The notes under the pieces were generated by a model, which worked only from the letters and a program-made list of their open reading frames with translations, had not been told where the DNA came from and ran no database searches. DNA of 64,000 bases, from the NCBI GenBank assembly GCA_030671085.1, contig DAOVAI010000001.1:3633-67632 (forward strand). Direction: 5' to 3'. The stretch's first letter is position 1; the number at the start of each line of letters is the position of its first letter. Positions 18,914-47,921 of this stretch are shown piece after piece. The translations under genes and the position numbers were made by a program. This stretch comes from Pseudomonadota bacterium. Its GTDB lineage: Bacteria > Desulfobacterota > Desulfobulbia > Desulfobulbales > Desulfocapsaceae.

Positions 18914-19213
18914 TTATTTGCCTGCCGTGACCTTGTCGGGAGCCTTGTTAACGTATTTAAAAAAGACCGGGAAGGCGACAAAGAAGGAAACGCAGATCAG
19001 GTATTCGATGCCCTTTATATGGGTGTAATAATCAACCAGGGTGTGCAGTGGTTTGATCATACCGATAGCGGTCATGTATTGGCTTGCCAGTGTACTTACA
19101 GACCAGTTTGCTTGGTAGAGGGCTCCTGTTAATGCTGCCGCTACCCAGAGACACATCATTGAACCTACTACCAAGATAACCCTGCTTGCTGTTTTTGAAG
19201 TCTTGTCTGCCAT
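18914..19213 (-). CDS. Small membrane protein: divergent peptide-family unit fused to an HmcD-like helix
   Basis: AAGGAG RBS before ATG 19213; VGSMMCLWVAAAL...YMTAIG followed by HTLVDYYTHIKGIEYLICVSFFVAFPVFFKYV. Confidence 0.75.
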   Translation of the reverse strand: MADKTSKTASRVILVVGSMMCLWVAAALTGALYQANWSVSTLASQYMTAIGMIKPLHTLVDYYTHIKGIEYLICVSFFVAFPVFFKYVNKAPDKVTAGK

Positions 19214-19250
19214 GCTCTTCTCCTTACCTGTTGTCATTATATAAATTGTA

Positions 19251-19445
19251 TCAGCCGATTAATGCGGTGAAGTAGTTTTTCAGTAAATTCAAAGGCCCAG
19301 AGCCGATCAAGGCGCTGGCGATACATGCTGCTCCCCAGAGACCAACGAGGGCAGCCATGACAATTCCTACACCGAGTACGAATGTAGAGGTTTCGTATCC
19401 AACTTCGGCCTGCTTTCTGGTTTTTGTTTGTGTGTCAGTAGTCAT
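19251..19445 (-). CDS. Small membrane peptide, GxWxxxC family
   Basis: VGLWGAACIASAL...GPLNLLKNYFTALIG; GGGGA RBS; paralogous to six other ORFs in the window. Confidence 0.85.
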   Translation of the reverse strand: MTTDTQTKTRKQAEVGYETSTFVLGVGIVMAALVGLWGAACIASALIGSGPLNLLKNYFTALIG

Positions 19446-19492
19446 GGTATTCCCCCGGTATCTCTTTTAAAGAGAGCTTTTTCTTTCACGTA

Positions 19493-19693
19493 TCAGTTTC
19501 CAGTGATAGCGGTGAACAATCCTTTAAAAACTTCCCCAGATCCGTTGTTGAGCATTACGCTGGCCATGCAGGTAACTGCCCATATTCCGACCATAATCGC
19601 TGCTGCTATTCCTACACCGAGTGTGAATTTGGTAGTTTCATCTATAACATCGACCTGATTATCTATGAGTTCTGTTTGTGTTTTGCCAGTCAT
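19493..19693 (-). CDS. Small membrane peptide, GxWxxxC family
   Basis: VGIWAVTCMASV...FKGLFTAITGN; AAGGAG RBS; sigma54 promoter upstream. Confidence 0.85.
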   Translation of the reverse strand: MTGKTQTELIDNQVDVIDETTKFTLGVGIAAAIMVGIWAVTCMASVMLNNGSGEVFKGLFTAITGN

Positions 19694-19750
19694 GACATTC
19701 TCCTTATCCTTCTGATTTTGTGATTTTTTTTGTTTTTCTGTGTTTTGTAT

Positions 19751-19766
19751 TGCATCAAGGATGCCA
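19751..19766 (-). promoter_or_regulatory. sigma54 -24/-12 promoter
   Basis: TGGCATCCTTGATGCA (GG-N10-GC). Confidence 0.8.
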
Positions 19767-20126: not shown

Positions 20127-21578
20127 TCAAGCAGTGGCTTTTCCGTTTCGAGGAATGATGATCGTACAGATATTTGATTGATCATCATTTCTGATTACAT
20201 CCAGGCTGCCGCCAAAGGTTTTCAAAAACTGTCTGCAGAAATTCATGTTGTGCCACGGCCTGTTGGGGTCCGCAGCACGAGGAGTCTTCTCAAATTTCCA
20301 AGGCGCTCCATTATCATATATGGATATCGCGATTTGAGCGTCGGTGGTGTTGTCATCATCGGTGAAGATTTCTATCTTTTTGTTTCCTGTCTTATCGTCT
20401 TGAAAACGACTTTTCACCGCTGTTCTGCTGCTTTGGATAGCTGACAGAATAACCAGCTGAAGATCACTGACATGATAGTTCAGTGAAATAGTGCTGTCTG
20501 CCATTGAGACGGAAAACTCAATACCATCGGTCTTAAGCGTTCCTCGTATCAGGCTCGATATGTGGGCAAAGATCTCTTCCAGGGTAAGGATTTTTGCCTC
20601 ACCGCTTTCACTGCCACTGGTAAAGGTAATCATATTAGTCAGGAGCTGTGACATCTTTTTTTCTTCTGCAAAGAGTTTTCGTAACAGGTCCTTGGTATCA
20701 TTGTCCATCTGTGAATCTTCGCTGAGGTCAAGAATCGCCTGAGTATAATTGATAACTCCATTGGAGCGATTGGTCAGTTCATGGCTCAGCCCACCTAGGA
20801 GATGGCCAATACTGCTGTACCTGTAAAGGCGGGAAAGTTCCTTTACCGGCCACTCGGGAACCATTTCTCCTGCATTTCGTGTCTTTTCTGGCAGTTGTTG
20901 TGATGCCAGGGTCTCAATCGTTGAATGGAGGGTGAAAAGTGAGATATCGCTCGATGATATTTTTGGAAAAAGAGTACGGCAATAGTGGATGATAGGAGTA
21001 GTGATATATTTATTCACCACCAGAAGCATGATGCTGACTGTTGCAACTACAAGAGCAAGCATCCCGACCAGTGCTCGTTGAAGCCCTAGAAGCTGTGTCT
21101 GGGTATATCTGGTAATGAGCTGATGAAAACCTGTGAGTTTCGTGTTGATAGAGCGTAATTGTTTTGAGAGTGAAGCCAGTTGAACTGCAGTCGGCGTGTC
21201 AGGACTGTTTTGGATACTGCGAAGGCTTACGGTCACATTAACCAGATCCACCTGGCTGATAAATGCGAGTTTAAATTCTTCTGGAATAAGGATGTCACCC
21301 AGGACCAAACTCATCTCTTTATCCAAACCCTGAATTTCTTTTATAAGTTCAGCAGTATTTAATGATTTTTGGCTGAGCAGTGTTTCATTGATGTGCTCTT
21401 TCATTCCAGTGAACTGAAAAAGAAGGGTCTGACTGGAATGAACCAGCTGTTCGCAATGACGATAGAGAAAATACTGTTTACCGGCAAGAAAGATGACGAC
21501 CATGAGCAGGCAGAGGGTAGAGCCTGTAAAGACATATAAAACACTTTTCAATGAAATTTTCGAAAAAATAGTCTTCAT
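20127..21578 (-). CDS. Membrane sensor with HisKA-like domain and degenerate HATPase
   Basis: Two TM segments; LGGLSHELTNRSNGVINY H-box; N-box altered (LSAIQSS), DNGAP present, F and G2 boxes not recognisable. Confidence 0.8.
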   Translation of the reverse strand: MKTIFSKISLKSVLYVFTGSTLCLLMVVIFLAGKQYFLYRHCEQLVHSSQTLLFQFTGMKEHINETLLSQKSLNTAELIKEIQGLDKEMSLVLGDILIPEEFKLAFISQVDLVNVTVSLRSIQNSPDTPTAVQLASLSKQLRSINTKLTGFHQLITRYTQTQLLGLQRALVGMLALVVATVSIMLLVVNKYITTPIIHYCRTLFPKISSSDISLFTLHSTIETLASQQLPEKTRNAGEMVPEWPVKELSRLYRYSSIGHLLGGLSHELTNRSNGVINYTQAILDLSEDSQMDNDTKDLLRKLFAEEKKMSQLLTNMITFTSGSESGEAKILTLEEIFAHISSLIRGTLKTDGIEFSVSMADSTISLNYHVSDLQLVILSAIQSSRTAVKSRFQDDKTGNKKIEIFTDDDNTTDAQIAISIYDNGAPWKFEKTPRAADPNRPWHNMNFCRQFLKTFGGSLDVIRNDDQSNICTIIIPRNGKATA

Positions 21579-21661: not shown

Positions 21662-22915
21662 CTATTTCTCACCCTTCCATTCGTAGACGATGGGCAGACG
21701 ATAAACGATAAAGCGATAAGTCAAGAAGTAGAGGGAGTAGAGAGTAACAGTAATCCATACTTCCTTCCAGTGTGGAATTTCCTGGTACAGCTGCCAGTTA
21801 TAACAAACCAGAGCCGTGTTGAGCCGATTCCAGACGATTCCTACTACAGTGATAAATGCTGCGAACCTGATCAGTCCAAGACGCTGATTCCTGACACCAA
21901 AGGCGAACATCAACATGGGCAGGACAACGGCGACACCGAGTTCAAGCATGTAGTAACTTCCCCATCCGGTAAGCAGGTACGACCATTCCTGATCATGGGC
22001 AACGGCTACTATTTTGATGATCAGGTAGGTGATCATGGCATATGAGGCACCTGTTGCAAGCCCCATGGTTATTTTGTCCAGATTGTCTTTGAATTCATCA
22101 TCACAGCGCCAGGCCATAAAATTCCTGATCAGTGTAGAAGATACGATGACCATGGAGAGTCCGGCAAAGATGGATGAACAGAAAAAATGAATCCATTGAA
22201 AGTTCACTGACAGCCAGAGGGGATGGACCTTGGACGGTGCGTAGGTGAACAAGGCACCCAAGGCTCCCTGGTGGAGTGTGGAAAGAATGATACCTGCGAT
22301 GGTGAGACCGAGGACCATTTTTCTGATGATACGTTTTCCTTTCAGCCAGCCAATCCATTCAAAAAAGGCAGGCAGCACTTCTGCAATCTGAACTGTCAGA
22401 TACGTTGCAACATGCCAGGCGACCAGGAAGAGAACCGCTGCCGGACCAAGTGATACAAACATCGGATAGGGGAGGCGCCATGGCATACCAAGATCCACTT
22501 CCAGGAAGAGGACAGCAAAGAAATAGCCCAGAAGGCCGTTCAGCAGTGCAAGACGTTCAATGGGGTGAAAATCTTTTCTGCCAAACAGTTCTACGGTGGT
22601 ACCCAGCATAAATCCTGATGCGGAAAGGGGAACCATTGCAAAAAGGCCGAATCCTAGAAAGAGGCCCCAGGGATAGTCATTGGAAGCATGGGTTACTGCT
22701 CCAAGGCCAAAGAGGTAACGCTGCATAATAAGCGGAACACCAATGGCAAAAATGCCGATCATCAGCCAGTTTACAGGATTTCTAAAAAACTGTTTTTTGT
22801 ATTCCGGCAGAGACAGACCCAACCACAGTTTTTCTTTGATGGTCCATTCTGTCCCGTCTTCTTTTAGATGATTGACAATTGGAATTTCAGGTCTTTCCTT
22901 TGAAAATATTCTCAT
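21662..22915 (-). CDS. NrfD-family membrane subunit (HybB/HmcC-like)
   Basis: GLGAVT...YPWGL, DLGMPWR, LSTLHQGALG, NRLN; about 10 TM helices. Confidence 0.9.
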   Translation of the reverse strand: MRIFSKERPEIPIVNHLKEDGTEWTIKEKLWLGLSLPEYKKQFFRNPVNWLMIGIFAIGVPLIMQRYLFGLGAVTHASNDYPWGLFLGFGLFAMVPLSASGFMLGTTVELFGRKDFHPIERLALLNGLLGYFFAVLFLEVDLGMPWRLPYPMFVSLGPAAVLFLVAWHVATYLTVQIAEVLPAFFEWIGWLKGKRIIRKMVLGLTIAGIILSTLHQGALGALFTYAPSKVHPLWLSVNFQWIHFFCSSIFAGLSMVIVSSTLIRNFMAWRCDDEFKDNLDKITMGLATGASYAMITYLIIKIVAVAHDQEWSYLLTGWGSYYMLELGVAVVLPMLMFAFGVRNQRLGLIRFAAFITVVGIVWNRLNTALVCYNWQLYQEIPHWKEVWITVTLYSLYFLTYRFIVYRLPIVYEWKGEK

Positions 22916-23853
22916 GCCTGCTCCTCCTTCTCATCATTTTCTTGTTCTTGTTTTTTGATATTTTCTTTTCTTGTAGCCAACAGGTGAAATCCTACAAAGA
23001 GGCCAGGCCAAATGGTGAGAACCATAGGAACCATAGCAAGAAAATCTTTTACCGAATTGAGGATTGGTTCTTTGGGTACATGGGTGTCAAAACCAACTTT
23101 GTCAAAGGAAACACTGGACAGGTACATCCAGGCAGTCCCCCCGACTTCTTTTTCTCCATAGATGTGGTCCACATATTTTCCAGGAGTGTTGCGAATACGC
23201 TGACGTCCCATGTCGATCAGGTCTGTACGCTTACCAAAGGTCAATGCCTCCTGGGGACATGCTTCTACACAGGCAGGTGGCTTTCCATCTTTCAGGCGGG
23301 TATCGTAACAGAAGATGCATTTCATAATGCGTGGGTTAAATGCACTGGAATACTTGAAAGTAGGAATATAAAATGGGCAGGCAATCATACAGGTCCTGCA
23401 ACCTACACAGACCTTGGAATTATAGATAACGGCCCCTTCCGGTGTCTTGGTATAGGCGTTGACAAAGCAGGAAGTCAAACAAGCTGGTTCCTGGCAGTGA
23501 TTACATTGGATCTTGCGGAATAGGGGATGGTCGAGTTCGGGAACATCATACTGATTCACTACTGTATAGGCTGTTTCATCGGTACGCCTTTTCTGGCCAT
23601 GATGGATTTCGTCAAAGACCGAGTAGTCAGTAAAGGGTTTCGCGGGTTCCGGGAGTCCCTGTTCTTTGTTACAGGCTGCTTCACAACTTCTGCATCCCAC
23701 ACAGCGGGTGAGGTCAACGAGAACGCCCATCCCTTCAGGGTATCCCTCGAAATCGTGCGCTGCTTGCGACTCTTTATTTTTAAGTACCGCAACTGCTGCA
23801 GTACCGGCAAGCCCGCCTTTTAAAAAATTTCTACGGCTTACAGTTTTTTTCAT
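22912..23853 (-). CDS. Tat-exported 4Fe-4S protein (HybA/HmcB-like) with C-terminal anchor
   Basis: SRRNFLK; CVGCRSCEAAC, CNHCQEPAC, CVGCRTCMIACP, CIFC...PACVEACP; IYGEKEVGGT. Confidence 0.92.
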   Translation of the reverse strand: MKKTVSRRNFLKGGLAGTAAVAVLKNKESQAAHDFEGYPEGMGVLVDLTRCVGCRSCEAACNKEQGLPEPAKPFTDYSVFDEIHHGQKRRTDETAYTVVNQYDVPELDHPLFRKIQCNHCQEPACLTSCFVNAYTKTPEGAVIYNSKVCVGCRTCMIACPFYIPTFKYSSAFNPRIMKCIFCYDTRLKDGKPPACVEACPQEALTFGKRTDLIDMGRQRIRNTPGKYVDHIYGEKEVGGTAWMYLSSVSFDKVGFDTHVPKEPILNSVKDFLAMVPMVLTIWPGLFVGFHLLATRKENIKKQEQENDEKEEQA

Positions 23854-24515: not shown

Positions 24516-26330
24516 TCATTCCTCCCTTTGTTTGTTCAATAGTTTTTTCTCAATGTTTTTTTCATTTATGTAACAATGATGCACAATATCCATCTCTTCA
24601 GCGTCAACGGTTTCATTGACCAGTAAGGCCTCAGCCAGTTTATGTAAGAACTTGTTGTTTTCGGAGAGCAGTTCTTTGGTTTCCCGGTAACATTGTTCAA
24701 TCAGCCTTTTGATTTCGTTGTCTATATTTTCAGCTGTTTTTTCGCTGTATGCCTTTGCTGCAGATCCTCCGCCTAAAAAACCACCCTGTTCCTGCATGTA
24801 GGCAACTGGTCCTATGACCTGACTCATGCCGAATTCACAGACTAAGCGGCTTGCTATTTCGGTTGCCGACAGGATGTCATTGGAAGCACCGGTTGTTTGA
24901 TGGCCAAAAACAATCTCTTCAGCTGCACGGCCGGCCATGAGGATCTTAATCCTGTTTACGAGGTATTCTCGAGAGTAGGTGTAGCGGTCATCTAAAGGAA
25001 GCTGCTGGGTGAGGCCCAATGCTCTTCCTCGAGGTATGATAGTAATCTTGTGGACAGGGTCGGTTTCCTCGAGAAGTGTTGCCGTGATGGCGTGCCCGGC
25101 TTCATGATAGGCTGTAACACGCCTGACTTTTTCATCAATAACCGCACTTTTTCGTTCCAGACCGAGGCTTATTTTGTCCTTGGCTTCTTCAAAATCTTGG
25201 AGATCAACAGCTGTTTTATTGTGACGAGCTGCCATCAAAGCTGCTTCATTTACCAGGTTGGCAATCTCAGCTCCGCTAAATCCTGGTATGGATCTGGCGA
25301 TCTCGGAAAGATTTACGCCGCTTGCCATCACAATTTTTTTGGCATGGACTTCCAGGATCTTTCTTCTGCCTTTGACATCAGGTAAGGTAATGGTCACTTG
25401 GCGGTCAAAACGGCCAGGGCGGAGAAGTGCAGGGTCAAGGATGTCTGGACGGTTTGTGGCAGCAATGATGATAACCGTCTCATTGGAATCAAACCCGTCC
25501 ATCTCCACTAGAAGGGCGTTCAGGGTCTGTTCGCGTTCATCAGAGCCTGTTGCATTGCCGCCGCTCCGTTTGCCGCCAATGGCATCAATCTCATCGATAA
25601 AAATGATACATGGTGAATTCTTTTTTGCTTCGGTAAAGAGTTCTCTTACCCGGGAAGCTCCGACACCCACGAACATTTCGACAAAATCTGAGCCGCCTAT
25701 GGAGTAGAAGGGAACCGATGCCTCTCCGGCAATTGCCTTGGCCAGGAGGGTCTTCCCGGTTCCTGGAGGGCCCTGCAGCAGAACACCTTTTGGGATGTAT
25801 CCACCGAGTTTGGAAAACTTTTCAGGGTGCTTTAAGGATTCGACAATTTCCACCAGCTCTGTTCTGGCCTCGCTGATGCCTGCAACATCTTCAAAGGTGA
25901 GGCCGGTGTCGCTGCTTGGCAAAAAAGAACTGCTTTTACTTTTACCAAAGCCTGACTTGCCTGCCTGCTGCATACGACTGAAGATGAGGTATCCGCCGAG
26001 AATGAGCAATACAGGAAGCATGGATTTAAGAAAACCCCCCATGCTCTCACTGTCTTTTTCAGCTGTGATCAGGACCGATTTTTCCTTCAGCAGCGGCATT
26101 ATTGAGGCAACATCAGGAATATAAGAGCTGAAAGATCTGTTGATACTGTCTTCGCCTTTAACGCTTCCGCCTCTTAAGTGGACAGTTTTAATTTCACCCT
26201 TTTGCAGCTGTTCCATAAAATCGGTATAAGATATTTCTTCAGGAGTTGTTTCATTGAGGTAAACGTTGTATCCGACAACTCCTAAGAAGGTGAGGAAGAG
26301 CACGAGTAACCCTGTTTGGATTTGGGACAT
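24516..26330 (-). CDS. ftsH: FtsH-family AAA+ zinc metalloprotease (paralog 1)
   Basis: Two TM segments; [49 protein letters not shown]. Confidence 0.95.
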
Positions 26331-26334
26331 GAGT

Positions 26335-27249
26335 TCACTCCGTAGCAGAGGTGGATGTTAAGTTTTTGTATGACCGTGATTTCTGGGCAAGAACTCCGGA
26401 CAGGAGGAGATTGAATACTGCCTCACTATCAGAAAGCATTGCTGAATTGCTTCGAAAACAAAATTCGTCAAGATAGAGTTGTAGGTGTTTGTTAGCCACT
26501 CCTCCTCGATGGATTTTATGCAACCAGAGTTCAAAACTCGCTATGATCTGTTCAATGCGAAAGGTTGTCGCGCTTTCGGATCCGGTAACAGTGATATAGC
26601 TGTTTCTGTCTATCCCCTGATAGGCAATGTTTTCAGGAACAACAAGAGATGACCCGGTGGCGACATGTTTGGCGAGAAAGTGGGTCACTGTATCGTTTGA
26701 CAAATCATTGAAGGGTTGCATTTTAATCCTTCCGGTGATCCCTGATGGCATGATAATTTCTGCAGCGGCAAGGATGTGTTCTTCCCCCCTGTTGTCGCCG
26801 CCCAATGATATGGTGCTGTCGCAGAGTTCAACGGTCCCGCGACATGGCTTGTTATCGGCAACTGCCATGGCCATACGGAGTTTTTGCAGCCAGGTCCAGG
26901 CAGTCTGATAGCTTGAGAGCTGGAGCAGGCGTTGTAGATCTTTGGCGCTGTGACCACCGTCTGTGGATGCGAGCCACCAAATAGAGACAAGCCACTCAGA
27001 TAAAGGTTTTTTGGTCCCATGCATAATGGTATTGGTGGTGATTGAGGTGGGATGGCCGCAATGGCTGCAGATGATTGTTTTTGCAGGTTGCTGCTCCTCA
27101 TTGACCCAGTTGCAGTATGGGCACTCAAAGCCTCGGGGCCATCGTTTATAAAAGAGAAAATGCTGGCTGATGGTCTCGCTATGAAACTCTTTTCGGAATT
27201 CCTCTACCGTTTGCGGAAATCGATTTCTGAGAGTGGGAGTTGCCTGCAT
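26335..27249 (-). CDS. IS1595-family transposase-derived protein, catalytic Asp motifs altered
   Basis: RWPRGFECPYC...CSHC zinc ribbon, SYQTAWTWLQKLRMAM, KHLQLYLDEFCFRSN; VELCDSTI and SLVVPENIAY replace the usual VEVDETY and TD-G-x-x-x-Y motifs. Confidence 0.85.
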   Translation of the reverse strand: MQATPTLRNRFPQTVEEFRKEFHSETISQHFLFYKRWPRGFECPYCNWVNEEQQPAKTIICSHCGHPTSITTNTIMHGTKKPLSEWLVSIWWLASTDGGHSAKDLQRLLQLSSYQTAWTWLQKLRMAMAVADNKPCRGTVELCDSTISLGGDNRGEEHILAAAEIIMPSGITGRIKMQPFNDLSNDTVTHFLAKHVATGSSLVVPENIAYQGIDRNSYITVTGSESATTFRIEQIIASFELWLHKIHRGGVANKHLQLYLDEFCFRSNSAMLSDSEAVFNLLLSGVLAQKSRSYKNLTSTSATE

Positions 27250-27295: not shown

Positions 27296-27311
27296 TGCAC
27301 ATATGGTGCCA
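27296..27311 (-). promoter_or_regulatory. sigma54 -24/-12 promoter
   Basis: TGGCACCATATGTGCA (GG-N10-GC), 46 nt upstream of ATG 27249. Confidence 0.85.
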
Positions 27312-27524: not shown

Positions 27525-27566
27525 GTTTCTGCTACACTTGTGTGGCGACACAAGTGTAGCAGAAAC
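27525..27566. promoter_or_regulatory. Perfect palindrome with 19-bp arms, candidate enhancer (UAS)
   Basis: GTTTCTGCTACACTTGTGT-GGCG-ACACAAGTGTAGCAGAAAC, about 215-255 bp upstream of the sigma54 site. Confidence 0.65.
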
Positions 27567-29405: not shown

Positions 29406-30524
29406 TCAAGCAAAAGTAGTAAGATCCCTGAAGACCACCACAGCCCCGCTCAGTTTATTCCCTTCGACAATGGGGGTGGAGGTGTACTCAACGGTGAAGC
29501 TGTTTCCATCCTTTGTCCAGAAGATATCATCGGATTTAAAGTGGACCTTTCCATCTTTGTATGCCATGTAGATAGGGCAATCTTCTTCTTTATAATGGGT
29601 ACCATCAGAATGGGTGTGGTGAACCAGCTTGTGATGGGACTTCCCGGTTAACTCTTCCTGGGTCCAGCCAAGCATGATTGAGGCTGCCTTGTTCATAAAG
29701 GTCACATTGCCGTCAATATCCAGGCCGAAGATTCCTTCTCCAGCAGAATTGACGATGAGTTCGAGTTGTTTTTTCAGCTTTTTTGTTTTGCCGATGTCTT
29801 TAAACACCACCACTGCACCAGTAACTTTTTGCTCATCCAGGAGAGGTGTTGATGTGTATTCAACGGCAAAGCTTTTCCCGGATTTTTTCCAGAAGATATC
29901 ATCGGATTCAACGTGGACTTTACCATCATTGTAGGCCATATAGATAGGGCATTCCTGGACAGGGAAGTCAGTGCCGTCCTGATGAGAGTGATGAACCAGG
30001 TCATGGTGGGATTTGCCGATGAGCTCTTCTTCACTCCAGCCCAGTAATTCTGTGACCTTGTCATTCACAAAAGTGACTTTCCCGTGAATGTCGAGGCCAA
30101 AGATACCATCCCCGGCAGAGCGGAGAATGGCCTGCAGCCGTTTTCTCAGCTTAATCCCTTCTGCTTCAGCCTGGATACGTTCGGCTATTTCTCTGTTTAA
30201 CGAGCCATTGATCACAGACATCTCAAAGGTCTTTTTTTCCACTGTGTCATCAAGACTGGACTGAACATCGTTTAAGGCGTCTGTGGTCGAGGTCAGTTTT
30301 TCCTGCAGCGTTTTTTCTTGATTTTGAAAAAAATTAAATTCCAGAATAGAGAGGAACAGGGTCAACCCATAAAGAGAAACGAGTGCCACAAGTGACCAGA
30401 GTTCAAAAGGAAAAGATGAATCGTGAGACTTGGTTTCAATTCGGAGATCAAGAAAGTATAAAATTGCTGCAGCAAAGAAAAAGAGTAAAGAAAGGAGCAG
30501 AGAAAAACGGAATCTTCTGGTCAT
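29406..30524 (-). CDS. Membrane protein with coiled coil and two near-duplicate PAS domains, no output domain
   Basis: Two TM segments; SAG[DE]GIFGLDI...GKSHHxLVHH...CPIYMAYxDGKVH...DDIFW...VEYTSTP...GAVVVF occurs twice, then a stop. Start ATG 30524 chosen from the GAGGA RBS. Confidence 0.88.
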   Translation of the reverse strand: MTRRFRFSLLLSLLFFFAAAILYFLDLRIETKSHDSSFPFELWSLVALVSLYGLTLFLSILEFNFFQNQEKTLQEKLTSTTDALNDVQSSLDDTVEKKTFEMSVINGSLNREIAERIQAEAEGIKLRKRLQAILRSAGDGIFGLDIHGKVTFVNDKVTELLGWSEEELIGKSHHDLVHHSHQDGTDFPVQECPIYMAYNDGKVHVESDDIFWKKSGKSFAVEYTSTPLLDEQKVTGAVVVFKDIGKTKKLKKQLELIVNSAGEGIFGLDIDGNVTFMNKAASIMLGWTQEELTGKSHHKLVHHTHSDGTHYKEEDCPIYMAYKDGKVHFKSDDIFWTKDGNSFTVEYTSTPIVEGNKLSGAVVVFRDLTTFA

Positions 30525-39189: not shown

Positions 39190-39262
39190 TAATTATGTTG
39201 CAAAGTTGTTGCACGCAACAACTTTGCAACATAATTAGACTCAACGCAACACATTCGCAACA
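39190..39262. promoter_or_regulatory. Perfect palindrome with 23-bp arms plus phased GCAACA repeats, candidate UAS
   Basis: TAATTATGTTGCAAAGTTGTTGC-AC-GCAACAACTTTGCAACATAATTA (39190-39237); GCAACA at 39215, 39226, 39246, 39257. Confidence 0.7.
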
Positions 39263-39382: not shown

Positions 39383-39398
39383 TGGCACGCGGAGTGCA
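39383..39398 (+). promoter_or_regulatory. sigma54 -24/-12 promoter
   Basis: TGGCACGCGGAGTGCA. Confidence 0.85.
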
Positions 39399-39464: not shown

Positions 39465-39671
39465 ATGAAAAATACAACAGCAATTACCAGAGAAAGAAGC
39501 GCAGCCATAGATAACGTCAGTGTTGAGCTGAGCAAAGTAGGTGTTAGTGCTGTTGGTATCTCTTCAGCGCTCATTGGTTGCTGGGCTGTAGCCTGCCTTG
39601 CTTCCGGTATGATAAGCAGTGGCGGCCCTGCATCCCTCGTGTCAAATTTTGTTTCTGCCCTTATTGGATAA
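39465..39671 (+). CDS. Small membrane peptide, GxWxxxC family (subtype A)
   Basis: AAGGAG RBS; ELSKV...IGCWAVACLASG..SSGGP..LV..FVSALIG. Confidence 0.9.
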   Translation: MKNTTAITRERSAAIDNVSVELSKVGVSAVGISSALIGCWAVACLASGMISSGGPASLVSNFVSALIG

Positions 39672-39713
39672 GCATGAGTTTATGATCTCGAAATGATAAC
39701 CTAGGAGCTCAGG

Positions 39714-39926
39714 ATGAACAGCACACACACAATTGAACAAAGCAACAATCAGGCAAAAGCAAGAGCCAATGTCGGTACTGAAATTTCTAAAGTAAGTATT
39801 GCTGCCATTGCTGTCTCCGCAGGAGTTATTGGATGCTGGGCCACAGCCTGCCTGTTTGCTGGAACCATCAGTAGTGGTGGCCCATCCGGACTTGTAAATC
39901 ATTTAGTGAAAGCAATTATCGGTTAG
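39714..39926 (+). CDS. Small membrane peptide, GxWxxxC family (subtype A)
   Basis: AGGAG RBS; EISKV...IGCWATACLFAG..SSGGP..LV..LVKAIIG. Confidence 0.9.
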   Translation: MNSTHTIEQSNNQAKARANVGTEISKVSIAAIAVSAGVIGCWATACLFAGTISSGGPSGLVNHLVKAIIG

Positions 39927-39972
39927 TAATGATCTGAACCAGATCGCCAAAAGATAGAAGAGGTATATCCCC

Positions 39973-40197
39973 ATGGAAGAAAAAGCAATTGCCAAAGAAG
40001 CCACCAAGGCAACCACCACAGTTCATGAAATAGAGCATACTGATAGTGAACTGTATAAAGTCGGTATGTATACCACCGCGGCCTTTGCTGTTGCAGTAGG
40101 TGGATGGGGACTGGTTTGTCTTTCCAGTTCTATTCTTAAAAATGGTGGTCCTCTTGAGTTGTTGAGAAATCTTTTTCAGGTGGTTACAGGAATGTAA
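39973..40197 (+). CDS. Small membrane peptide, GxWxxxC family (subtype B)
   Basis: GAGGT RBS; TDSELYKVG...VGGWGLVCLSS...GGP...LFQVVTGM. Confidence 0.9.
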   Translation: MEEKAIAKEATKATTTVHEIEHTDSELYKVGMYTTAAFAVAVGGWGLVCLSSSILKNGGPLELLRNLFQVVTGM

Positions 40198-40642: not shown

Positions 40643-40658
40643 TGGCATCGTACCTGCA
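40643..40658 (+). promoter_or_regulatory. sigma54 -24/-12 promoter
   Basis: TGGCATCGTACCTGCA. Confidence 0.8.
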
Positions 40659-40753: not shown

Positions 40754-40960
40754 ATGAAAGAAACTCAAGCCTCACACACGGTAAACGTAAAAACAGAAAG
40801 CATCGCGTCTGCTGAAATTTCCAAGGTAGCAGTGACGGCTATTGGCATTACTGCTGGTATCATTGGTATCTGGGCGGTTGCTTGCATGGTTGCAGGTATT
40901 GCAAATAGCGGCGGCCCTGTTGGCCTGGTATCCAATTTATTCAAAGCAATTTTAGGCTAA
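40754..40960 (+). CDS. Small membrane peptide, GxWxxxC family (subtype A)
   Basis: AAGGA RBS before ATG 40754; EISKV...IGIWAVACMVAG..NSGGP..LVSNLFKAILG. Confidence 0.88.
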   Translation: MKETQASHTVNVKTESIASAEISKVAVTAIGITAGIIGIWAVACMVAGIANSGGPVGLVSNLFKAILG

Positions 40961-41003
40961 ATCAACTCTTATCCACTCTCCACTCAACAAAAGGAACAAT
41001 CCC

Positions 41004-41225
41004 ATGAACAATACAGACGTCACCAAACAAAACGTAAAAACTACTGTTCACGAAGCTGTAAATACTGATAGTGAATTGTATAAGGTTGGAGCTGTCGTTA
41101 CCGCTGCCTTTGCTGGAGGAATTGGAGTATGGGCTGTTGTCTGCCTTTCCAGTGCCTTTGTCTCTGCCGGTGGTCCGGTAGCTCTTGCCAAAAGCCTGTT
41201 TGGTGCTGTGACTGGCAGTATGTAA
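41004..41225 (+). CDS. Small membrane peptide, GxWxxxC family (subtype B)
   Basis: AAGGA RBS; TDSELYKVG...IGVWAVVCLSS...GGP...LFGAVTGSM. Confidence 0.9.
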   Translation: MNNTDVTKQNVKTTVHEAVNTDSELYKVGAVVTAAFAGGIGVWAVVCLSSAFVSAGGPVALAKSLFGAVTGSM

Positions 41226-41485: not shown

Positions 41486-43354
41486 ATGGCGATTCTGATT
41501 CGAAATCTCTTTATCTTTTTTCTCTTTACCGTGCTCCTTGGTGGAGCCTATGGCTTATGGAAGCTCGAGAATACATTGCGAACAGTGACTTACTCCGAAT
41601 TTCGTCATTGTCTCGCCAACCATGAGCTTGAATCTACCACTTTTACCGGAAATAAAGTCATTGCTACACACAAGGCTGGGGACAGTTATGAAACCACAGT
41701 ACCGAATCCTGAAAAACTGATTTCTGAGCTGCAAGATAGAAATATTCAGATTATTTTTAAAAAGGATCGTTCTGAGCAGCTTTTCCAAGCAACTGCCCTC
41801 ATCTACATCATCTTACTGCTGTTAACAGTCATCATTTCCTTGAGTAAGAAAAAAAGGCTTGAAGAAGAGGAAAGCAAATTTGCTTCGGATAAACTCATCC
41901 TTCCAGATAGTGGTCACAAGCTCGTAACCTTTGATGATGTGGCCGGTATCCCTGAAGCGTTGGAGGAGTTACAGGAAATCGTCAATTTTCTCAAAAATCC
42001 AGATCAATTCAGCAAAATTGGCGCAGTGAGTCCCAAGGGAATCCTTTTGCAAGGCCCCCCAGGCACTGGAAAGACATTACTGGCCAGAGCAATAGCAGGT
42101 GAAGCGAAGGTTCCGTTTTACAGCTTCAGTGGTTCTGACTTTGTAGAAATGTTTGTCGGTGTTGGGGCTTCCAGAGTCAGGGATATCTTTAAAGAGGCAA
42201 AAACCAATTCACCCTGCATTATTTTTATCGATGAGATTGATGCTGTTGGGGGAAGCCGTGCAGGTGGGGCCACTGCCAGCGGGCAGGATGAAAGGAGCCA
42301 AACCTTAAACGCGCTGCTGGTTGAAATGGATGGCTTTTCCACATCTGATACAATCGTTGTCTTAGCGGCAACGAATAGACCGGATATCCTGGATCCAGCC
42401 TTGAGGCGACCTGGTCGTTTTGACAGGCAGGTCACTATTCTCCCACCTGATCTCAAAGGAAGAAAAAAGATTCTCCAGGTACATGGTGCGAAAGTAGCCC
42501 TCCAACCAGGGCTGGGTATGGACAAAATTGCCCACATGGTTCCCGGCTTTACCGGAGCTGAACTTGCCAACCTTGTCAATGAGGCGGCCCTTATGGCTGC
42601 CAGGAGAGGAAAAGATCGCGTTGATTATCTGGATTTTGAACATGCCAGGGATCGAATTCTCATGGGAGTTGAGCGAAAAGGGATGATCATCTCTGAAAAG
42701 GATCGCAATATCCTTGCTTTCCATGAGGCAGGACATGCAATAGTGGCCAAAACACTGCCGGAAGCAGATCCGATTCATAAAATTACTATTATCCCACGAG
42801 GTCGTGCCCTGGGACAGACCCAGCAACTCTCTGTTACTGATCGGACCAGTTACAGTTATGAGTATCTGAAAAGTAGAATTACCATTCTTATGGGTGGCAG
42901 GGCTGCAGAGGAAATAGCTTTTCAGCAAAGAACAACAGGGGCCCAGGGGGACATTGTACAGGCCACCGAAATTGCAACCAATATGATTTGTAAGTGGGGG
43001 ATGAGTGATGTCATAGGTCCCCAGGCCATGGTCATTGATGACTCGGGCTTTTTGGGAGGGGCTGCTCACCGGCTGGAAATGAGTGATAGAACCTCAGATT
43101 CTGTTGATAAAGAAATCAAAAATCTGCTTGAACTCTGTAACAATGAAGCGTTAACAATTCTTAAAGAACAATTTTACCTCCTCAAACAGCTTGCCAGTAT
43201 TCTCCTCGAGGTGGAAACTCTGGATGATGAAGAGTTTGAGATTATCATGGCGTGTCATTTTACTGATAAAATTGAGGCTGGAATCCAGGAAACCCACCAA
43301 TGTCGCGATTGCCCTGCGGCAGAAAGTTGTATTCACTCAAAACTTAAAAAATAA
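41486..43354 (+). CDS. ftsH: FtsH-family AAA+ zinc metalloprotease (paralog 2) with Cys-rich tail
   Basis: Two TM segments; [35 protein letters not shown]; C-terminal [10 protein letters not shown]. Confidence 0.95.
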
Positions 43355-43357: not shown

Positions 43358-44263
43358 ATGCGTTCTTTAAAAAAAACGAGCTATGTTGCATTTCTCGGAG
43401 TAGCAGCTCTGCTCATTGTGGTCATTATCCTCTCTGTTCGCCAATACCAGCTCACCGAAAGATACAACAAGATCATTACCCAGAGTGAAGAGATGATCTT
43501 TCAGTTCTCTACTATCCGTGAGCAGATCACCTCATCCCTGATCAAAAATGATTGGGGGGAAATTGTGAGTGCAGCAGATCAGCTGAAGAAGTTGAATTCC
43601 TCACTGGCAAGACTTCAGGAAAACACCCTCATACCAGGTGAGTACCGCCTTGATATGGCAAAACAGGTAGACCTTGCCGGACTTGCAATTTCATCGAAAG
43701 AAATTTTGTCCAGTGAAAATAAGGTTACCCATAGTCTCGACCTGCAGAATAAAATGCGGACGCTGGCAGAATATCTGATGCAGTTTGACCGTATTATTGT
43801 CAGCCAGATGCGGGCTAAAGTTGTCCAGTTCCAGACTGTCATGATCGGAGCCCTTGGTGCTGTGATTTGCCTGATCAGTTTTTCTCTCATCCTTCTCTAC
43901 AAAAAAACGATGCTCCCCCTTCTTCGCCTGTCCGAACAGGCCGGGGACCCGGATGTCCTCGTCAACGGCTTCAGGTACGATGCTGATGCCTGTGCCGAAG
44001 TCACTGAGCTTATAAACTCCGTCAATGCATTGATGAAGACGGACAGGGAGCATCCTGGAACCGAGGAAACAGGTCGACATCACGATGAGGAACTGGCTGC
44101 CTTTCTCAATGAGAGCACAAACCTTTCAAATGGAATCATTAACTATACGCAATTACTCGTAGATTCTTATCGTGAGGTGGAGATGGGAGAGGAGGAAACA
44201 AAAATCCTTCACAATATCATCGAAGCTGCAGAGCGAATTGCCCAGCTCAACAAAGAGATTTGA
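43358..44263 (+). CDS. Membrane pseudo-kinase: DHp-like end without His, no HATPase
   Basis: Paralog of 20127-21578 (QY..., FQFxxxxExI, VDL); ends LAAFLNESTNLSNGIINYTQLL...ERIAQLNKEI. Confidence 0.8.
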   Translation: MRSLKKTSYVAFLGVAALLIVVIILSVRQYQLTERYNKIITQSEEMIFQFSTIREQITSSLIKNDWGEIVSAADQLKKLNSSLARLQENTLIPGEYRLDMAKQVDLAGLAISSKEILSSENKVTHSLDLQNKMRTLAEYLMQFDRIIVSQMRAKVVQFQTVMIGALGAVICLISFSLILLYKKTMLPLLRLSEQAGDPDVLVNGFRYDADACAEVTELINSVNALMKTDREHPGTEETGRHHDEELAAFLNESTNLSNGIINYTQLLVDSYREVEMGEEETKILHNIIEAAERIAQLNKEI

Positions 44264-44659: not shown

Positions 44660-45604
44660 ATGATTAAAAGTTCAGTATTAACAGTAAGTTTTATGACAAT
44701 GGCGGCATCTCTGCTTCTTGCCGGTACTAGTCTGGCTGAAGATGAGTACGACGTTAAGTTGTATGGACCTAAAAGTTCCATTGAATGGAACAAACCTATC
44801 AAGGCCACATTTGATCATAAGACCCACACAATGGATGCTGGGCTCGAATGCAACTCCTGCCATGATGATCTTTTCTCAATGCAGCGTGGAACTGCGGTAA
44901 GCAGCCATAAATTCACCATGAAAGCCATGGCTGAAGGGCAATTCTGCGGGAGTTGCCATGATGGCGACACCGCATTTGCAACAGATACCAATTGTATGGC
45001 TTGTCATGGTGTTGCAGAAGATCCAATGATCTGGGATGAACCCACCAAAGCAGCATTCAGCCACACTTCTCATGTAGAGGACATGGGCCTTGAATGCAGC
45101 AGTTGTCACACTGGAACATTCGCCATGAAAAAAGGTGCTGCAACAGCCAATAAAGATTTCACAATGGCCTCCTTTAAAGAAGGGAAATATTGTGGTTCCT
45201 GTCATAATGGTGATGATGCCTTTGACTCTGCAAGCCAATGTGAATCCTGTCATTTTCCTCCAGCCGAAAAAATCGTTTTTACTCAACCTGTAAAGTCAGT
45301 CGTTTTTGATCACGACATTCATGTAACAAGAGAAAGTCTCTCTTGTGAGTCTTGTCATAAAGAAGTTTTCGCCATGAAAAAAGGCACTGTAGAAGGACAG
45401 GAACTTATCCTTTCCGATGATCCCGCAGAGAAGAGAAAATATCTTGAAAATCTTCATAACAAATACTGTGGAACCTGCCATGACTCTTCACAGGCTTTTG
45501 GCTATCTTACCAGGTGTACTGTCTGCCATATCGGTGTGAAAGGTTTTGATAAAATGAGTGGCGGAAACAAAAAAAATGATGCACATGGAAAGAGCAAGCA
45601 CTAA
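44660..45604 (+). CDS. c7-type multiheme cytochrome, 9 CxxCH
   Basis: Signal peptide; three triheme repeats; paralog of 34182-34847 (YDVKxxGPKSxIxWxKP; CHIGVKG). Confidence 0.93.
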   Translation: MIKSSVLTVSFMTMAASLLLAGTSLAEDEYDVKLYGPKSSIEWNKPIKATFDHKTHTMDAGLECNSCHDDLFSMQRGTAVSSHKFTMKAMAEGQFCGSCHDGDTAFATDTNCMACHGVAEDPMIWDEPTKAAFSHTSHVEDMGLECSSCHTGTFAMKKGAATANKDFTMASFKEGKYCGSCHNGDDAFDSASQCESCHFPPAEKIVFTQPVKSVVFDHDIHVTRESLSCESCHKEVFAMKKGTVEGQELILSDDPAEKRKYLENLHNKYCGTCHDSSQAFGYLTRCTVCHIGVKGFDKMSGGNKKNDAHGKSKH

Positions 45605-45688
45605 TGGTTTGAGTCACCCGAAATGCACTGTTTCATGTAGCGAATAGACCTATTATATTTTTTCTATATAAATCGAAGAGGAGAAAAG

Positions 45689-46996
45689 ATGGCTGGAAGG
45701 ATGGTTGATATTTCTAAGAGGTGGGGATTTCATGGTGTTGAAGCCTTGAAAAACGCAAGCCCCGGATACAAAATGCTAATGGGTCTGTTTGCCCTGCTTG
45801 CCCTCGCTGGTGTTGCTGTAGGATTCCAGGGAATGTTTGTAGGGTATCATCATGTTTATGGTGTAACCAGGCAGATTTCCTGGGGATTACTTATCTCTAC
45901 ATACATTTTTTGCGTTGTTACCTCTACAGGGCTCTGTATTATTTCATCAATTGGCCATGTCTTTGGCGGCGAAGCATTCATGCCCATTGCCAAACGCGCT
46001 GTCTTTATGTCAATTATGTTCATGTTCGGTGGGTTTTGTATCATTTTCTTTGATATTGAAAATCCTTTCCGGATGGCAATCTGGAATGTCTTTTCACCAA
46101 ATTTTGTTTCAAATATGTGGTGGATGGGAACCCTCTATGGAATGTATCTGGTCTTCATGATCATTGAGTATTTCTTTCTCCTTGAGCAGAACCATAGCCT
46201 CTCTCGACTGATGGGATTCTTCGGCCTGGTTGTCGGTATTGCTGCCCATAGTAACTTGGGAGCTGTATTCGGAATGCTCCACGGACGACCTTTCTGGTAT
46301 GGACCATACCTCCCGATTTACTTTATTTTCTCTGCTGCAATGTCAGGGGGGTGTGCCATTCTCTTCTTCACTACGCTTGGTTGGAGAATCAATCCCGAAA
46401 TCATGAATCAGCGTATGGAACGAGCGGTGAAGGCTGTAACCCAGGTCACCATTTTCCTTATCTCTGTAATAATCTTTTTCACCATCTGGAAAATTATCAC
46501 AGGAATGGTATCTGAAGGGAAACAGCTCGTCATCATGTCCTTTTTGACTGGAGATTATTCCATTAATTTCTGGGTATTTGAAGTTTTTCTTGGCATGTTC
46601 CTGCCCCTGTATCTCCTGATCCGTTCACGAGGAAACAATTTTAACCTGATCCTGACCGCAACAGGGCTTATGATGATAGGAATCTTCTTCATGCGCTATG
46701 ATATCGTTATCCCAGGCCAGATGGAATCAGTCTACCACTCCCTTGGTGTTGTCGAAGAAGCTAATTTGCTGACCTACACACCATCGTTCCATGAAATCAT
46801 GGTCTCGCTCTTTGGTATTGGCGTTATCGGACTAGCCTACTTTGCCGGTGAGAAAATGCTCAACGGACATCAGCTTGAGAAACATGAGATCGTTCCTGAA
46901 GGCGGTTACATCTGTCCTGGTTGTGGTGCCATCCACTTTATGGAAGAAGGCGAGACCGAAGAAGACGCCATGAAACGTCATCACAGGATCTGGTAA
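45689..46996 (+). CDS. NrfD/PsrC-family membrane subunit with C-terminal CxxC/His tail
   Basis: WGLLISTY, SNMWWMGTLY, GRPFWYG, MRYD; tail YICPGCGAIH...KRHH. Confidence 0.92.
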   Translation: MAGRMVDISKRWGFHGVEALKNASPGYKMLMGLFALLALAGVAVGFQGMFVGYHHVYGVTRQISWGLLISTYIFCVVTSTGLCIISSIGHVFGGEAFMPIAKRAVFMSIMFMFGGFCIIFFDIENPFRMAIWNVFSPNFVSNMWWMGTLYGMYLVFMIIEYFFLLEQNHSLSRLMGFFGLVVGIAAHSNLGAVFGMLHGRPFWYGPYLPIYFIFSAAMSGGCAILFFTTLGWRINPEIMNQRMERAVKAVTQVTIFLISVIIFFTIWKIITGMVSEGKQLVIMSFLTGDYSINFWVFEVFLGMFLPLYLLIRSRGNNFNLILTATGLMMIGIFFMRYDIVIPGQMESVYHSLGVVEEANLLTYTPSFHEIMVSLFGIGVIGLAYFAGEKMLNGHQLEKHEIVPEGGYICPGCGAIHFMEEGETEEDAMKRHHRIW

Positions 46997-47093
46997 TCGA
47001 ACTGGAGATGTCTCTTTTGCCGGCCTGAATCAGACCTGCTAAAGAGACACTCATATCACCTTACTGAACGAATATTTGAAAGGATATCATCAC

Positions 47094-47921
47094 ATGAAAT
47101 TTCCTAAAATAAATTTTGATAATCTGAAAAATGAGGGTACAGAATCAGTTACCGCTCAGGAAAGAAGAAAGTTTTTAAAACTCGGTCTTGCAGTCGCCGG
47201 TGTTTACGCAGGTGGAAAAATACTGTCCCTGACCTCTATCGTTGGCACTGCCCATGCATCAGGCGGTGGTGTCGATCTTGTTAAAAGATATCCATACAAT
47301 CCTCACTACAGCATGGTTATTCGTCAATCGCTCTGTATTGATTGCGAGAAATGCGTGGATGCCTGTAAGTCCACCAATCATGTTCCGGATGATGGGTATA
47401 GAACCCGTATTTTGACAAAGAAATACAGTGGTACGCTGGATAAACAGGTTGAGTTTATCCCAGTACTCTGTAATCACTGCAACAATGCACCATGTGTGAG
47501 GGCATGTCCGACAAGAGCAACCTATAAGGATCCTGTTACAGGTATTGTCCGTATGGAAAGCAAAAAATGTATTGGTTGTAAAACCTGTATGCTCGCCTGT
47601 CCATACGATGCCAGATACTTCAGTGTTGAAAGACGAGCTGTTGATAAGTGTGACTTCTGCTGGGAAGAGAGATTGTCTAAAGGTGAAACACAGACCGGCT
47701 GTTCATCTGCCTGTCCCACAGGTGCCAGAACCTTTGGCAATCTCACCGATCCTGATAATATCGTCTACAAGCTTGTGCACCAGCTTGAAGAGCAGGTTTG
47801 GGTGTTGCGGCCGGCAGATGACACAAAACCCAATATTTTCTATATGAAAGGAAATATGCGTTCTGTTGATAATATTCTCAATGAACAAAAATTTAAATTT
47901 TCTGCTCCTCAAAAGTCCTAG
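47094..47921 (+). CDS. Tat-exported 4Fe-4S protein (NrfC-like), paralog of 33318-34076
   Basis: ERRKFLK; CIDCEKCVDAC, CNHCNNAPCVRACP, CIGCKTCMLACPY, KCDFC. Confidence 0.93.
   Translation: MKFPKINFDNLKNEGTESVTAQERRKFLKLGLAVAGVYAGGKILSLTSIVGTAHASGGGVDLVKRYPYNPHYSMVIRQSLCIDCEKCVDACKSTNHVPDDGYRTRILTKKYSGTLDKQVEFIPVLCNHCNNAPCVRACPTRATYKDPVTGIVRMESKKCIGCKTCMLACPYDARYFSVERRAVDKCDFCWEERLSKGETQTGCSSACPTGARTFGNLTDPDNIVYKLVHQLEEQVWVLRPADDTKPNIFYMKGNMRSVDNILNEQKFKFSAPQKS

Follow-up and report, generated by a model that had tools for sequence, protein, structure and literature searches.

Candidate sigma-54-controlled cassettes of small membrane proteins, FtsH proteases, pseudo-kinases and quinone-cytochrome modules in a Desulfocapsa-like genome

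Genes of the region

We analysed a stretch of 64,000 nucleotides (the window, our contig C68) from the Pseudomonadota bacterium assembly GCA_030671085.1 (Desulfobulbales, Desulfocapsaceae), in which a 29-kb region joins small membrane peptides to FtsH proteases, kinase-like membrane proteins and candidate quinone-linked redox modules in two divergent arms. The genome is 2.5 Mb and 81% complete, and close homologues of the window peptides carry the Desulfocapsa label. The region lies between tig-clpPX-lon-tRNAs on one side and hisI-hisG-engB-lepA on the other, with no step in GC content at these borders. Parts were identified by calls of open reading frames (ORFs) and by Pfam and NCBIfam scans of the window proteins (Table 1).

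The left arm (minus strand, 32717 to 18914) begins with a GAF-PAS-PAS kinase, a membrane PAS-PAS protein, a REC-PAS-sigma54 activator, an IS1595-like ORF and FtsH, and continues with a five-haem class III cytochrome, an HmcB-like and an HmcC-like protein, a pseudo-kinase of 483 residues, two peptides and a 99-residue fusion protein. The right arm (plus strand, 33318 to 47921) starts with an Fe-S protein, a six-haem c7 cytochrome and NrfD, followed by a PAS kinase, an activator and five peptides; its second half contains FtsH, a pseudo-kinase of 301 residues and a further module of nine-haem c7 cytochrome, NrfD and Fe-S protein. Six component classes are thus common to both arms, as listed in the preliminary description of this DNA: PAS kinase, sigma-54 activator, FtsH, membrane pseudo-kinase, peptides, and a module of cytochrome, Fe-S protein and NrfD-family protein. 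That description also took the arms to repeat the same parts, which is right for the component classes but not for the redox modules, since these are of different families: HmcC is only 20–24% identical to NrfD1 and NrfD2, and the c3 and c7 cytochromes give no BLAST match to each other. Moreover, the right arm has two redox modules, and the IS1595-like and PAS-PAS genes are found in the left arm only. Kinase, activator and FtsH are 48–55% identical from arm to arm (FtsH 52%, activators 55%). A recent inverted duplication was rejected because the identity is merely at this level; judged by their sequences, the arms are old paralogous cassettes.

The cassette as the unit

The preliminary description had further argued for one functional unit, and we asked in how many genomes the two arms stay together. 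Both arm-specific pseudo-kinases are present in 16 of 30 genomes of the genus, and in 8 of these they are neighbours on one contig, divergent in 4 and head-to-tail in 4; in the other 8 they lie on different contigs, some perhaps by assembly breaks. A search of 201 genomes of the order gave HmcC in 116 of them and an NrfD2 orthologue, at 73% identity or more, in 28; 18 genomes have both, and in 5 the two lie close together on one contig. Hence 10 of the 28 genomes with the NrfD2 orthologue have no HmcC match, and 98 of the 116 with HmcC have no NrfD2 orthologue. Genome G015, which is 99% complete, contains the right arm only, placed beside the nuclease gene that flanks the left arm in the window, and gives no match to HmcC or HmcD. 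A third paralogous set, unlinked to the two arms, exists in the genome of the window, with kinase and activator on contig C53 and peptides, FtsH, pseudo-kinase, pentahaem cytochrome, Fe-S protein and NrfD on contig C196; in genome G014 this set is contiguous (locus L020). A unit that needs both arms could appeal to their being neighbours in half of the genus genomes carrying both, and to the near-identical recognition helices of activators 1 and 2 (DRSTLYRK), which make cross-talk possible. The evenly split orientation, the finding of either arm alone, the unlinked third cassette and the low identity of these old paralogues make it highly improbable, and near-complete one-arm genomes such as G015 contradict it. 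The cassette, not the 29-kb locus, is the unit.

The co-occurrence of the component classes was borne out, with gene order kept across genera and families. Records of Desulfocapsa, Desulfobulbus and Desulfogranum share the left cassette order (activator, optional IS1595-like gene, ftsH1, c3, hmcB, hmcC, kinase, peptide, hmcD-like); the cassette is also seen in other families, there with the peptide-HmcD pair before ftsH (L040, L129). The right cassette is intact at 67–94% identity in two other families (L130, L131), and their NrfD2 nests among Desulfocapsa sequences in the tree; together these suggest that it moved as a block. This conservation bears on the view that the cassettes merely gather unrelated members of a sigma-54 regulon beside their activator, with no physical cooperation. 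In fact, as such a view would predict, lineages differ in the arrangement of the parts, have lost some of them and have exchanged others (c3/Hmc, c7/NrfD, pentahaem). We nevertheless consider it improbable, because gene order persists across families and in two orders, the right cassette has apparently moved as a block, the lineages of FtsH and kinase are specific to the cassettes, and an HmcD-like motif is joined to one peptide.

Table 1. Features of the window and gene families of related loci (positions in the window unless a locus or contig is given; TM, transmembrane)
Feature	Position	Strand	Basis
99-residue fusion, peptide-family N-half and HmcD-like C-terminal motif	18914..19213	-	NF045712, E 0.0016, 18 bits (cut-off 34)
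64-residue membrane peptide, new family	19251..19445	-	family alignment, gene tests
66-residue membrane peptide, new family	19493..19693	-	family alignment; identical RNA-library contig 19454-19731
Predicted sigma-54 -24/-12 site, left peptide array	19752..19766	-	motif match
Membrane pseudo-kinase, 483 residues, His kept, ATP-binding boxes lost	20127..21578	-	alignment
HmcC/NhcC-like NrfD-family membrane subunit	21662..22915	-	NF045714, 368 bits (cut-off 550)
HmcB-like Tat-exported 4Fe-4S protein	22912..23853	-	NF045715, 402 bits (cut-off 420)
Class III cytochrome c, 5 CxxCH, 177 residues	23921..24454	-	domain scan, haem motif count
FtsH1, catalytic motifs intact, no Cys tail	24516..26330	-	TIGR01241 above cut-off
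IS1595-transposase-derived ORF, first two acidic catalytic positions altered, single copy	26335..27249	-	alignment
Predicted sigma-54 -24/-12 site, IS1595-like/ftsH1/hmc operon	27297..27311	-	motif match
Nested palindromes, putative activator sites	27531..27560	.	function inferred
REC-PAS-sigma54 activator 1 (GSFTGA)	27573..29384	-	domain scan
Membrane PAS-PAS protein without kinase domain	29406..30572	-	domain scan
Soluble GAF-PAS-PAS histidine kinase 1	30717..32717	-	domain scan
NrfC-type 4Fe-4S protein 1	33318..34076	+	domain scans
c7-type cytochrome, 6 CxxCH	34182..34847	+	domain scan, haem motif count
NrfD1, orthologue of Dissulfuribacter A0A1B9F9F5 (DITHS69_0271)	34934..36142	+	domain scan, tree
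Soluble PAS histidine kinase 2	36231..37388	+	domain scan
REC-PAS-sigma54 activator 2 (GAFTGA)	37381..39189	+	domain scan
TGTTGC/GCAACA repeats in perfect 23-nucleotide inverted repeat, putative activator sites	39190..39262	.	function inferred
Predicted sigma-54 -24/-12 site	39383..39397	+	motif match
Three peptides (39465-39671, 39714-39926, 39973-40197)	39465..40197	+	family alignment; identical RNA-library contig 39469-40110
Predicted sigma-54 -24/-12 site, TGTTGC repeats before it at 40465-40503	40643..40657	+	motif match
Two peptides (40754-40960, 41004-41225)	40754..41225	+	family alignment; identical RNA-library contig 40677-41231
FtsH2, C-terminal Cys tail (C590, C606, C609, C615)	41486..43354	+	alignment, tree
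Membrane pseudo-kinase, 301 residues: TM, four-helix sensor, TM, DHp with His to Asn, no ATPase domain	43358..44263	+	
c7-type cytochrome, 9 CxxCH	44660..45604	+	domain scan, haem motif count
NrfD2, orthologue of UWK_03030 by accession offset	45689..46996	+	domain scan, tree
NrfC-type 4Fe-4S protein 2	47076..47921	+	domain scans
Pentahaem cytochrome loci	C196:4178-5641 (genome G000); L026, L035, L126, L155, L160, L161, L166		
75–80-residue TM family	L116:8125-8352, L120:4441-4674, L124:4992-5279, L127:2189-2428, L163:2336-2566, L167:7282-7575		
38–52-residue TM family	L116:15215-15349, L119:16152-16304, L124:12232-12348, L126:18211-18339, L128:10085-10243, L167:12139-12258		

Peptides, proteases, pseudo-kinases and their control

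Seven ORFs of 64–74 residues in the window align as one family, in which G-x-W, a Cys and two Gly positions are invariant. Each has a purine-rich upstream stretch resembling a ribosome-binding site and encodes a hydrophobic segment, and four of them differ from their orthologues mostly at third codon positions; by these three signs we regard the seven as real genes. An eighth ORF, the 99-residue fusion, has an N-terminal half as in the peptide family followed by the HmcD-like motif, whose model match is below the cut-off. No Pfam family matched the peptides at E up to 1, and on this ground they were rejected as lipoproteins, pilins or gas-vesicle proteins; under the lipobox rule, the often bulky residue preceding the conserved Cys also speaks against lipoproteins. 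Contigs identical to parts of the three arrays are present in one RNA library, a marine-sediment run that consists of contigs only, possibly comes from the same campaign as the window and is not informative on levels or starts. Such cover is absent for many window genes, from which no inference can be drawn. Two contigs end 8–9 nucleotides downstream of the starts implied by the sigma-54 sites, which is only a hint, as contigs cannot show starts and the run is perhaps not independent.

Of 201 Desulfobulbales genomes, 133 have peptide orthologues, the highest number being 17–18 copies in one genome; in the order to which Dissulfuribacter and Dissulfurimicrobium belong, 28 of 69 genomes have them. 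Among 401 genomes drawn from the phylum, 17 contain the family, 11 of them outside Desulfobulbales (nine in the second order, one in another family and one a spurious weak match). The family forms 483 clusters at 50% identity without annotation, and this set of small membrane proteins is the first of three narrow claims made here. The best 150 of the 483 cluster representatives are all 64–129 residues long, and no longer fusion of the peptide was seen among 7997 candidates, which is weak evidence. An atlas search with a homologue returned only unnamed Thermodesulfobacteriota clusters. In the 201 genomes, the HmcD fusion and HmcC are both present in 107, one alone in 3 and 9, and neither in 82, that is, 12 discordant genomes in a count where kin are not independent. 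Peptides and NrfD1/2-family proteins occur together in 129 genomes, peptides only in 4, NrfD only in 27 and neither in 41.

The genome of the window holds three further stand-alone peptide-HmcD arrays, and in G014 complete enhancer-promoter-peptide-HmcD-terminator units are duplicated at scattered sites. The similarity of such dispersed units runs from enhancer to terminator; they may not be miniature inverted-repeat transposable elements, since no terminal repeats were seen by eye in seven copies. At L019:8880-14743 of G014, two near-identical units stand as direct repeats around a four-gene operon. By its adjoining locus tag, UWK_01342, this operon appears to be the sulfur reductase/hydrogenase operon UWK_01338-01341 of PMC3739170 (statements on cited papers, here and below, refer to the available portions of their text).

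FtsH1 and FtsH2 both have two TM segments and intact Walker A/B, FVG pore loop and HExxH motifs, and both score above the TIGR01241 cut-off. In a FastTree with midpoint root, built on 64 sequences in which a few loci are duplicated, the cassette FtsHs are separate from the two other FtsHs of the genome and divide into an FtsH1-type and an FtsH2-type lineage, each across several families. Of the 22 members of the FtsH2 clade, 19, drawn from both orders, end in a Cys tail, CxxC-x4/5-C plus one further upstream Cys, which none of the 42 other sequences has. The three-Cys core is kept in all of 71 close FtsH2 homologues and the fourth Cys is in place in 56. The tail is possibly a metal or Fe-S site, and a second narrow claim is therefore an FtsH clade whose Cys tail may sense redox state; the tail has a predicted local distance difference test score under 50 in the structure model, and our search of the open literature found nothing on an FtsH Cys tail. 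Another FtsH lineage, closely related to the housekeeping copy, lies divergent from the NrfD1-type module in three families, and at L035:8203-10022 (G026) the FtsH that follows a peptide is split into two ORFs.

The N-terminus of both pseudo-kinases consists of a TM segment, a four-helix part and a second TM segment, and their DHp domains are of the same subfamily as those of the soluble kinases. Neither has the parts of an active kinase: the 483-residue protein keeps the His without N, G1, F and G2 boxes, and the 301-residue protein has Asn for His and no CA domain. Intact kinase relatives are found at L014 and L121. The phospho-His position of 51 sequences is occupied by His 20 times, by Asn 17 times and by Ser 12 times, with 2 unaligned, while Glu at H+1 is kept in 45 and Asn at H+4 in 43. 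Loss of the His is seen in three or more groups, namely proteins of right-arm type, part of the left-arm copies of Desulfocapsa and the left-arm copies of Desulfobulbus, a number judged from sequence classes and not from a tree. ExxN/T in the DHp helix is the phosphatase motif of HisKA proteins, and loss of His with retention of ExxN is the pattern expected of a phosphatase. The pseudo-kinase would be a membrane-sensing phosphatase; the window's 483-residue copy, with its His retained, could also relay phosphate. The third narrow claim is that a sensor kinase was probably turned into a phosphatase several times in nature. DivL and ChpT, which are His-less or ATPase-less kinases, reportedly act as phosphatase or relay. 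Escherichia coli NRII H139N acts only as a phosphatase (10.1101/122606), and all three are analogies of mechanism only. In fold searches with the 301-residue protein, the top Foldseek rows were NarQ fragments of TM-sensor-HAMP type at E 0.06, and a wide search returned mostly generic four-helix bundles (NarQ: Z 12.2, root-mean-square deviation 3.6, 219 aligned); as these matches are weak or generic, no ligand is proposed for the sensor.

The strict sigma-54 core, the consensus TGGCA-N7-TGC, occurs six times in the 64 kb, and four of the sites immediately precede the IS1595-like/ftsH1 operon and the three peptide arrays. A loose pattern with two mismatches gave 55 matches over the window against 60 expected, which is not above chance. 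In a Desulfocapsa-rich set, the core stands upstream of 25 of 38 arrays versus 1.3% of random windows. Such cores before the targets, together with GAFTGA-type activators, point to a sigma-54 regulon. The PAS domains of both soluble kinases share a conserved IC-x3-H-x7-CP and the PAS-PAS protein contains an H-x3-H...CP pattern twice, possibly metal or haem sites. Of the features of IS1595 enzymes, the IS1595-like protein retains the Zn ribbon, the helical region and the C-terminal motif, but at the first two acidic catalytic positions, the D of VEVDET and that of TDG, all five aligned cassette copies have another residue. An active element would have its acidic catalytic residues and stand at multiple or variable positions; this gene has one copy at a fixed position, is missing from some left cassettes, and looks domesticated and optional.

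Redox modules, their relatives and a proposed function

No catalytic molybdoenzyme subunit was found among the window proteins in the Pfam and NCBIfam scans, and the locus contains neither the molybdopterin subunit nor the TorD-type MolyC that mark Psr, Ttr and MOLY systems. NrfD as the MolyC of the disproportionation marker cluster was ruled out, MolyC being a TorD-type chaperone, and the YTD cluster genes yedE, tusA and dsrE-like are absent from the region. The closest likeness is to NhcABCD and HmcABCD of Desulfovibrio (PMC8076601, 10.1101/2023.11.02.564894): the left arm likewise combines a class III cytochrome with HmcB-like and HmcC-like proteins, both in one operon and both below their NCBIfam cut-offs, and with an HmcD-like motif, and as in Nhc the set of cytochrome, Fe-S, NrfD-like and small hydrophobic subunits includes no cytoplasmic part. 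However, the cytochrome has five haems, not the nine of NhcA (NF045784, 27 bits versus 640) or the 16 of HmcA, and the left cassette has no gene for HmcE or HmcF. Moreover, HmcD is fused to the new peptide domain and multiplied, and FtsH, pseudo-kinase and a transposase-derived gene are added. As far as sequence can tell, the mode of action of the redox cores is that of Nhc and of NrfBCD-type modules; by their defining subunits, however, they are not Hmc, Nhc or Psr.

Some of these genes have been listed before. Finster 2013 (PMC3739170) named UWK_03020, UWK_03030 and UWK_03039 of Desulfocapsa sulfexigens polysulfide reductases with Fe-S and cytochrome neighbours and guessed at hydrogenotrophic sulfur reduction. 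We matched NrfD2 to UWK_03030 and HmcC to UWK_03039 by accession offset from UWK_03025, and NrfD1 to UWK_03020 by gene counting, which also places the counterpart of the region in this cultured species at UWK_03018-03039. The locus here has no PsrA-type catalytic subunit, and the available portion of that paper does not mention the peptides, FtsH, pseudo-kinases or regulation. The redox genes were thus already listed in 2013, and the accessory set is undescribed in the open literature searched.

NrfD1 is also 55% identical to A0A1B9F9F5 (DITHS69_0271, the L163 protein) of Dissulfuribacter thermophilus and falls in the same clade (support 1.0). According to PMC13490349, this protein is about 120-fold more abundant on H2/sulfite than in thiosulfate disproportionation (log2 fold change -6.9) and is among the most abundant proteins on H2/sulfite. 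As with NrfD1, the genes around it include relatives of the window's Fe-S and c7 proteins and a sigma-54 activator; unlike in the window, a sigma-54 site of its own, a small TM ORF of another kind and a MerR-like gene accompany it. Dissulfuribacter also has a second NrfD (A0A1B9F9E9). In cable bacteria, the TMH1-DsrOhPh-tetrahaem locus (PMC13047784) likewise joins Fe-S protein, NrfD-family protein, multihaem cytochrome and a small single-helix protein and was proposed as a quinone-to-periplasm conduit. The likeness is one of composition. DsrPh clusters near DsrP, whereas NrfD1/2 match the DsrP model only weakly, and no FtsH or kinases are described in the available text. OhcBAC of D. vulgaris (PMC4641369) is a quinone-linked multihaem complex also predicted to be under its own sigma-54 activator, but its membrane subunit is of haem-b type, not NrfD, and its available account describes no peptides, protease or pseudo-kinase. 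For a Desulfobulbaceae strain on an anode, a gene given as nrfD was among the top ten transcripts (PMC4595844). The locus is not described in the available portions of PMC12998232, PMC9751629, PMC5516251 and 10.1101/2021.08.21.457207. The statement of the preliminary description that no pathway of this composition is known agrees with our search: peptides, FtsH, pseudo-kinase and quinone-cytochrome module were not found described together in the open literature, subscription papers being outside the search.

The region consists of two paralogous, separable cassettes plus one extra redox module, and we put at about an even chance the reading that the cassettes encode inducible, self-limiting conduits from menaquinone to periplasmic multihaem cytochromes, with the peptides as accessory subunits, FtsH quality control and phosphatase feedback. 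Gene content, kept order, sigma-54 cores before the arrays, the lack of a molybdoenzyme subunit, the separate FtsH clades and His loss with ExxN all point this way. So do the joint occurrence of the HmcD fusion with HmcC and of the peptides with NrfD1/2-family proteins, the small TM ORFs before other NrfD genes, the cable-bacteria locus, the Cys tail of the FtsH2 clade and the rise of the NrfD1 orthologue on H2/sulfite. On a redox or sulfur-oxyanion cue, the soluble PAS kinase would phosphorylate the activator, which would switch on peptides, FtsH, cytochrome/Fe-S/NrfD genes and pseudo-kinase. The peptides would serve in high dose as accessory subunits or assembly factors of NrfD-family proteins, as HmcD and NhcD are thought to do, and the private FtsH would remove surplus or unassembled peptide and NrfD, possibly controlled in the right arm by a metal or Fe-S site in the Cys tail of FtsH2. 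The pseudo-kinase, as a membrane-sensing phosphatase, would turn the activator off again.

Several observations weigh against this reading. The induced Dissulfuribacter NrfD has neither a family peptide nor FtsH beside it, and the Dissulfuribacter peptide gene (product A0A1B9F7P6) adjoins a recA-like gene. The Fe-S neighbour of A0A1B9F9F5 changed by only -0.99 log2 (PMC13490349), so NrfD1 may not be stoichiometric with its Fe-S partner. The upstream tail Cys of FtsH2 is missing or shifted in 15 of the 71 close homologues. G014 has six HmcD-type copies and a single HmcC, so that peptide genes exceed their supposed partner, and some cassette relatives have no redox module nearby (L148) or no peptides (L118, L119). 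Outside Desulfocapsa (31 loci chosen by peptide matches, L159 left out as spurious) most arrays stand apart: FtsH lies no more than 1.5 kb from 10 of 32, a multihaem cytochrome no more than 5 kb from 12 of 32, and a sigma-54-like motif precedes only 9 of 32 under a looser pattern with a background of 5.8%.

The 20 outside arrays without a redox gene within 5 kb, the many peptide genes per genome and the copying of complete enhancer-promoter-peptide-terminator units to scattered sites would suit a regulon of envelope or proton-motive-force stress resembling Psp, in which PspF works with sigma-54 and PspC with FtsH. Bulk peptides would then be the main effectors that stabilise the membrane, FtsH would remove them and damaged proteins, and the redox modules would be co-induced clients. 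We rate this as somewhat unlikely, for the scanned proteins match no Psp family beyond the AAA core shared with PspF, the activator is of the REC type found in two-component systems, the presence of the HmcD fusion closely follows that of HmcC, and the peptide family is found almost only in two orders of sulfur cyclers. Alternatively, the peptides might be adaptors resembling MgtR that deliver bound NrfD or membrane kinase to the cassette FtsH, the main job of the cassette being regulated destruction. Peptide genes directly 5' of FtsH in both orders, including the cytochrome-free loci L148–L150, proximity of FtsH to arrays far above chance given the few ftsH genes per genome, and the possible sensor tail of FtsH2 favour this. 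It is unlikely all the same: the peptides have no sequence link to MgtR, are 64–79 residues long with a second amphipathic segment, lack FtsH nearby in 22 of the 32 arrays, and in one case are fused to an HmcD-like motif, which points to a subunit role. Both the Psp regulon and MgtR/MgtC/FtsH combine small membrane proteins with FtsH turnover, and are analogies of mechanism without sequence similarity.

If the cassettes are inducible conduits, they touch the open question of how electrons are routed through the membrane of sulfur-disproportionating bacteria. The strongest condition-specific protein of the Dissulfuribacter proteome (PMC13490349) is an unexplained orphan NrfD with its orthologue in this locus, and such orphan NrfDs gain here a defined regulatory and proteolytic context. 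We raise only tentatively, as a possibility, that Desulfobulbales and Dissulfuribacterales share an undescribed class of respiratory control, in which a sigma-54 switch would drive the making in bulk of the new small proteins and of catalytically orphan NrfD conduits, a private FtsH with a C-terminal metal or Fe-S sensor would set how long these persist, and a membrane phosphatase that arose repeatedly from a kinase would complete the circuit. If true, the control system would be a valve flipping the bacteria between sulfur disproportionation and quinone-based respiration of sulfite, sulfur and external acceptors.

Further observations concern the modules and their surroundings. The first three genes of the right arm are a further module type. 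Elsewhere this NrfD1-type module comes with a separate activator and sigma-54 site, a small TM ORF and a MerR-like gene, and in the second order too it adjoins hisI-hisG-engB. MerR/HspR-like genes follow its NrfD genes at L116, L120, L124, L127, L128, L163 and L167. Other NrfD genes of the lineage are preceded by other small TM ORFs. One unnamed TM family of 75–80 residues, with an aromatic motif and then GPF, lies between sigma-54 site and nrfD1 in two orders, and another of 38–52 residues is immediately 5' of NrfD2-like genes (Table 1). In the third cassette type the redox partner is usually a pentahaem cytochrome anchored in the membrane, which often occurs as tandem pairs, and at L118:910-4064 (G028) genes for 26-haem and 16-haem cytochromes lie about 3.6 kb from the end of a left-type cassette. 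In the window, a protein with two blocks of pentapeptide repeats and a long acidic linker (48356-50020) keeps its place beside one cassette end in relatives, an AT-rich inverted repeat of 27 nucleotides, 96% perfect, lies between kinase 1 and the PAS-PAS gene (30596-30653), and a single 398-residue ORF at 8146-9342 fuses YbeY and PdxJ.

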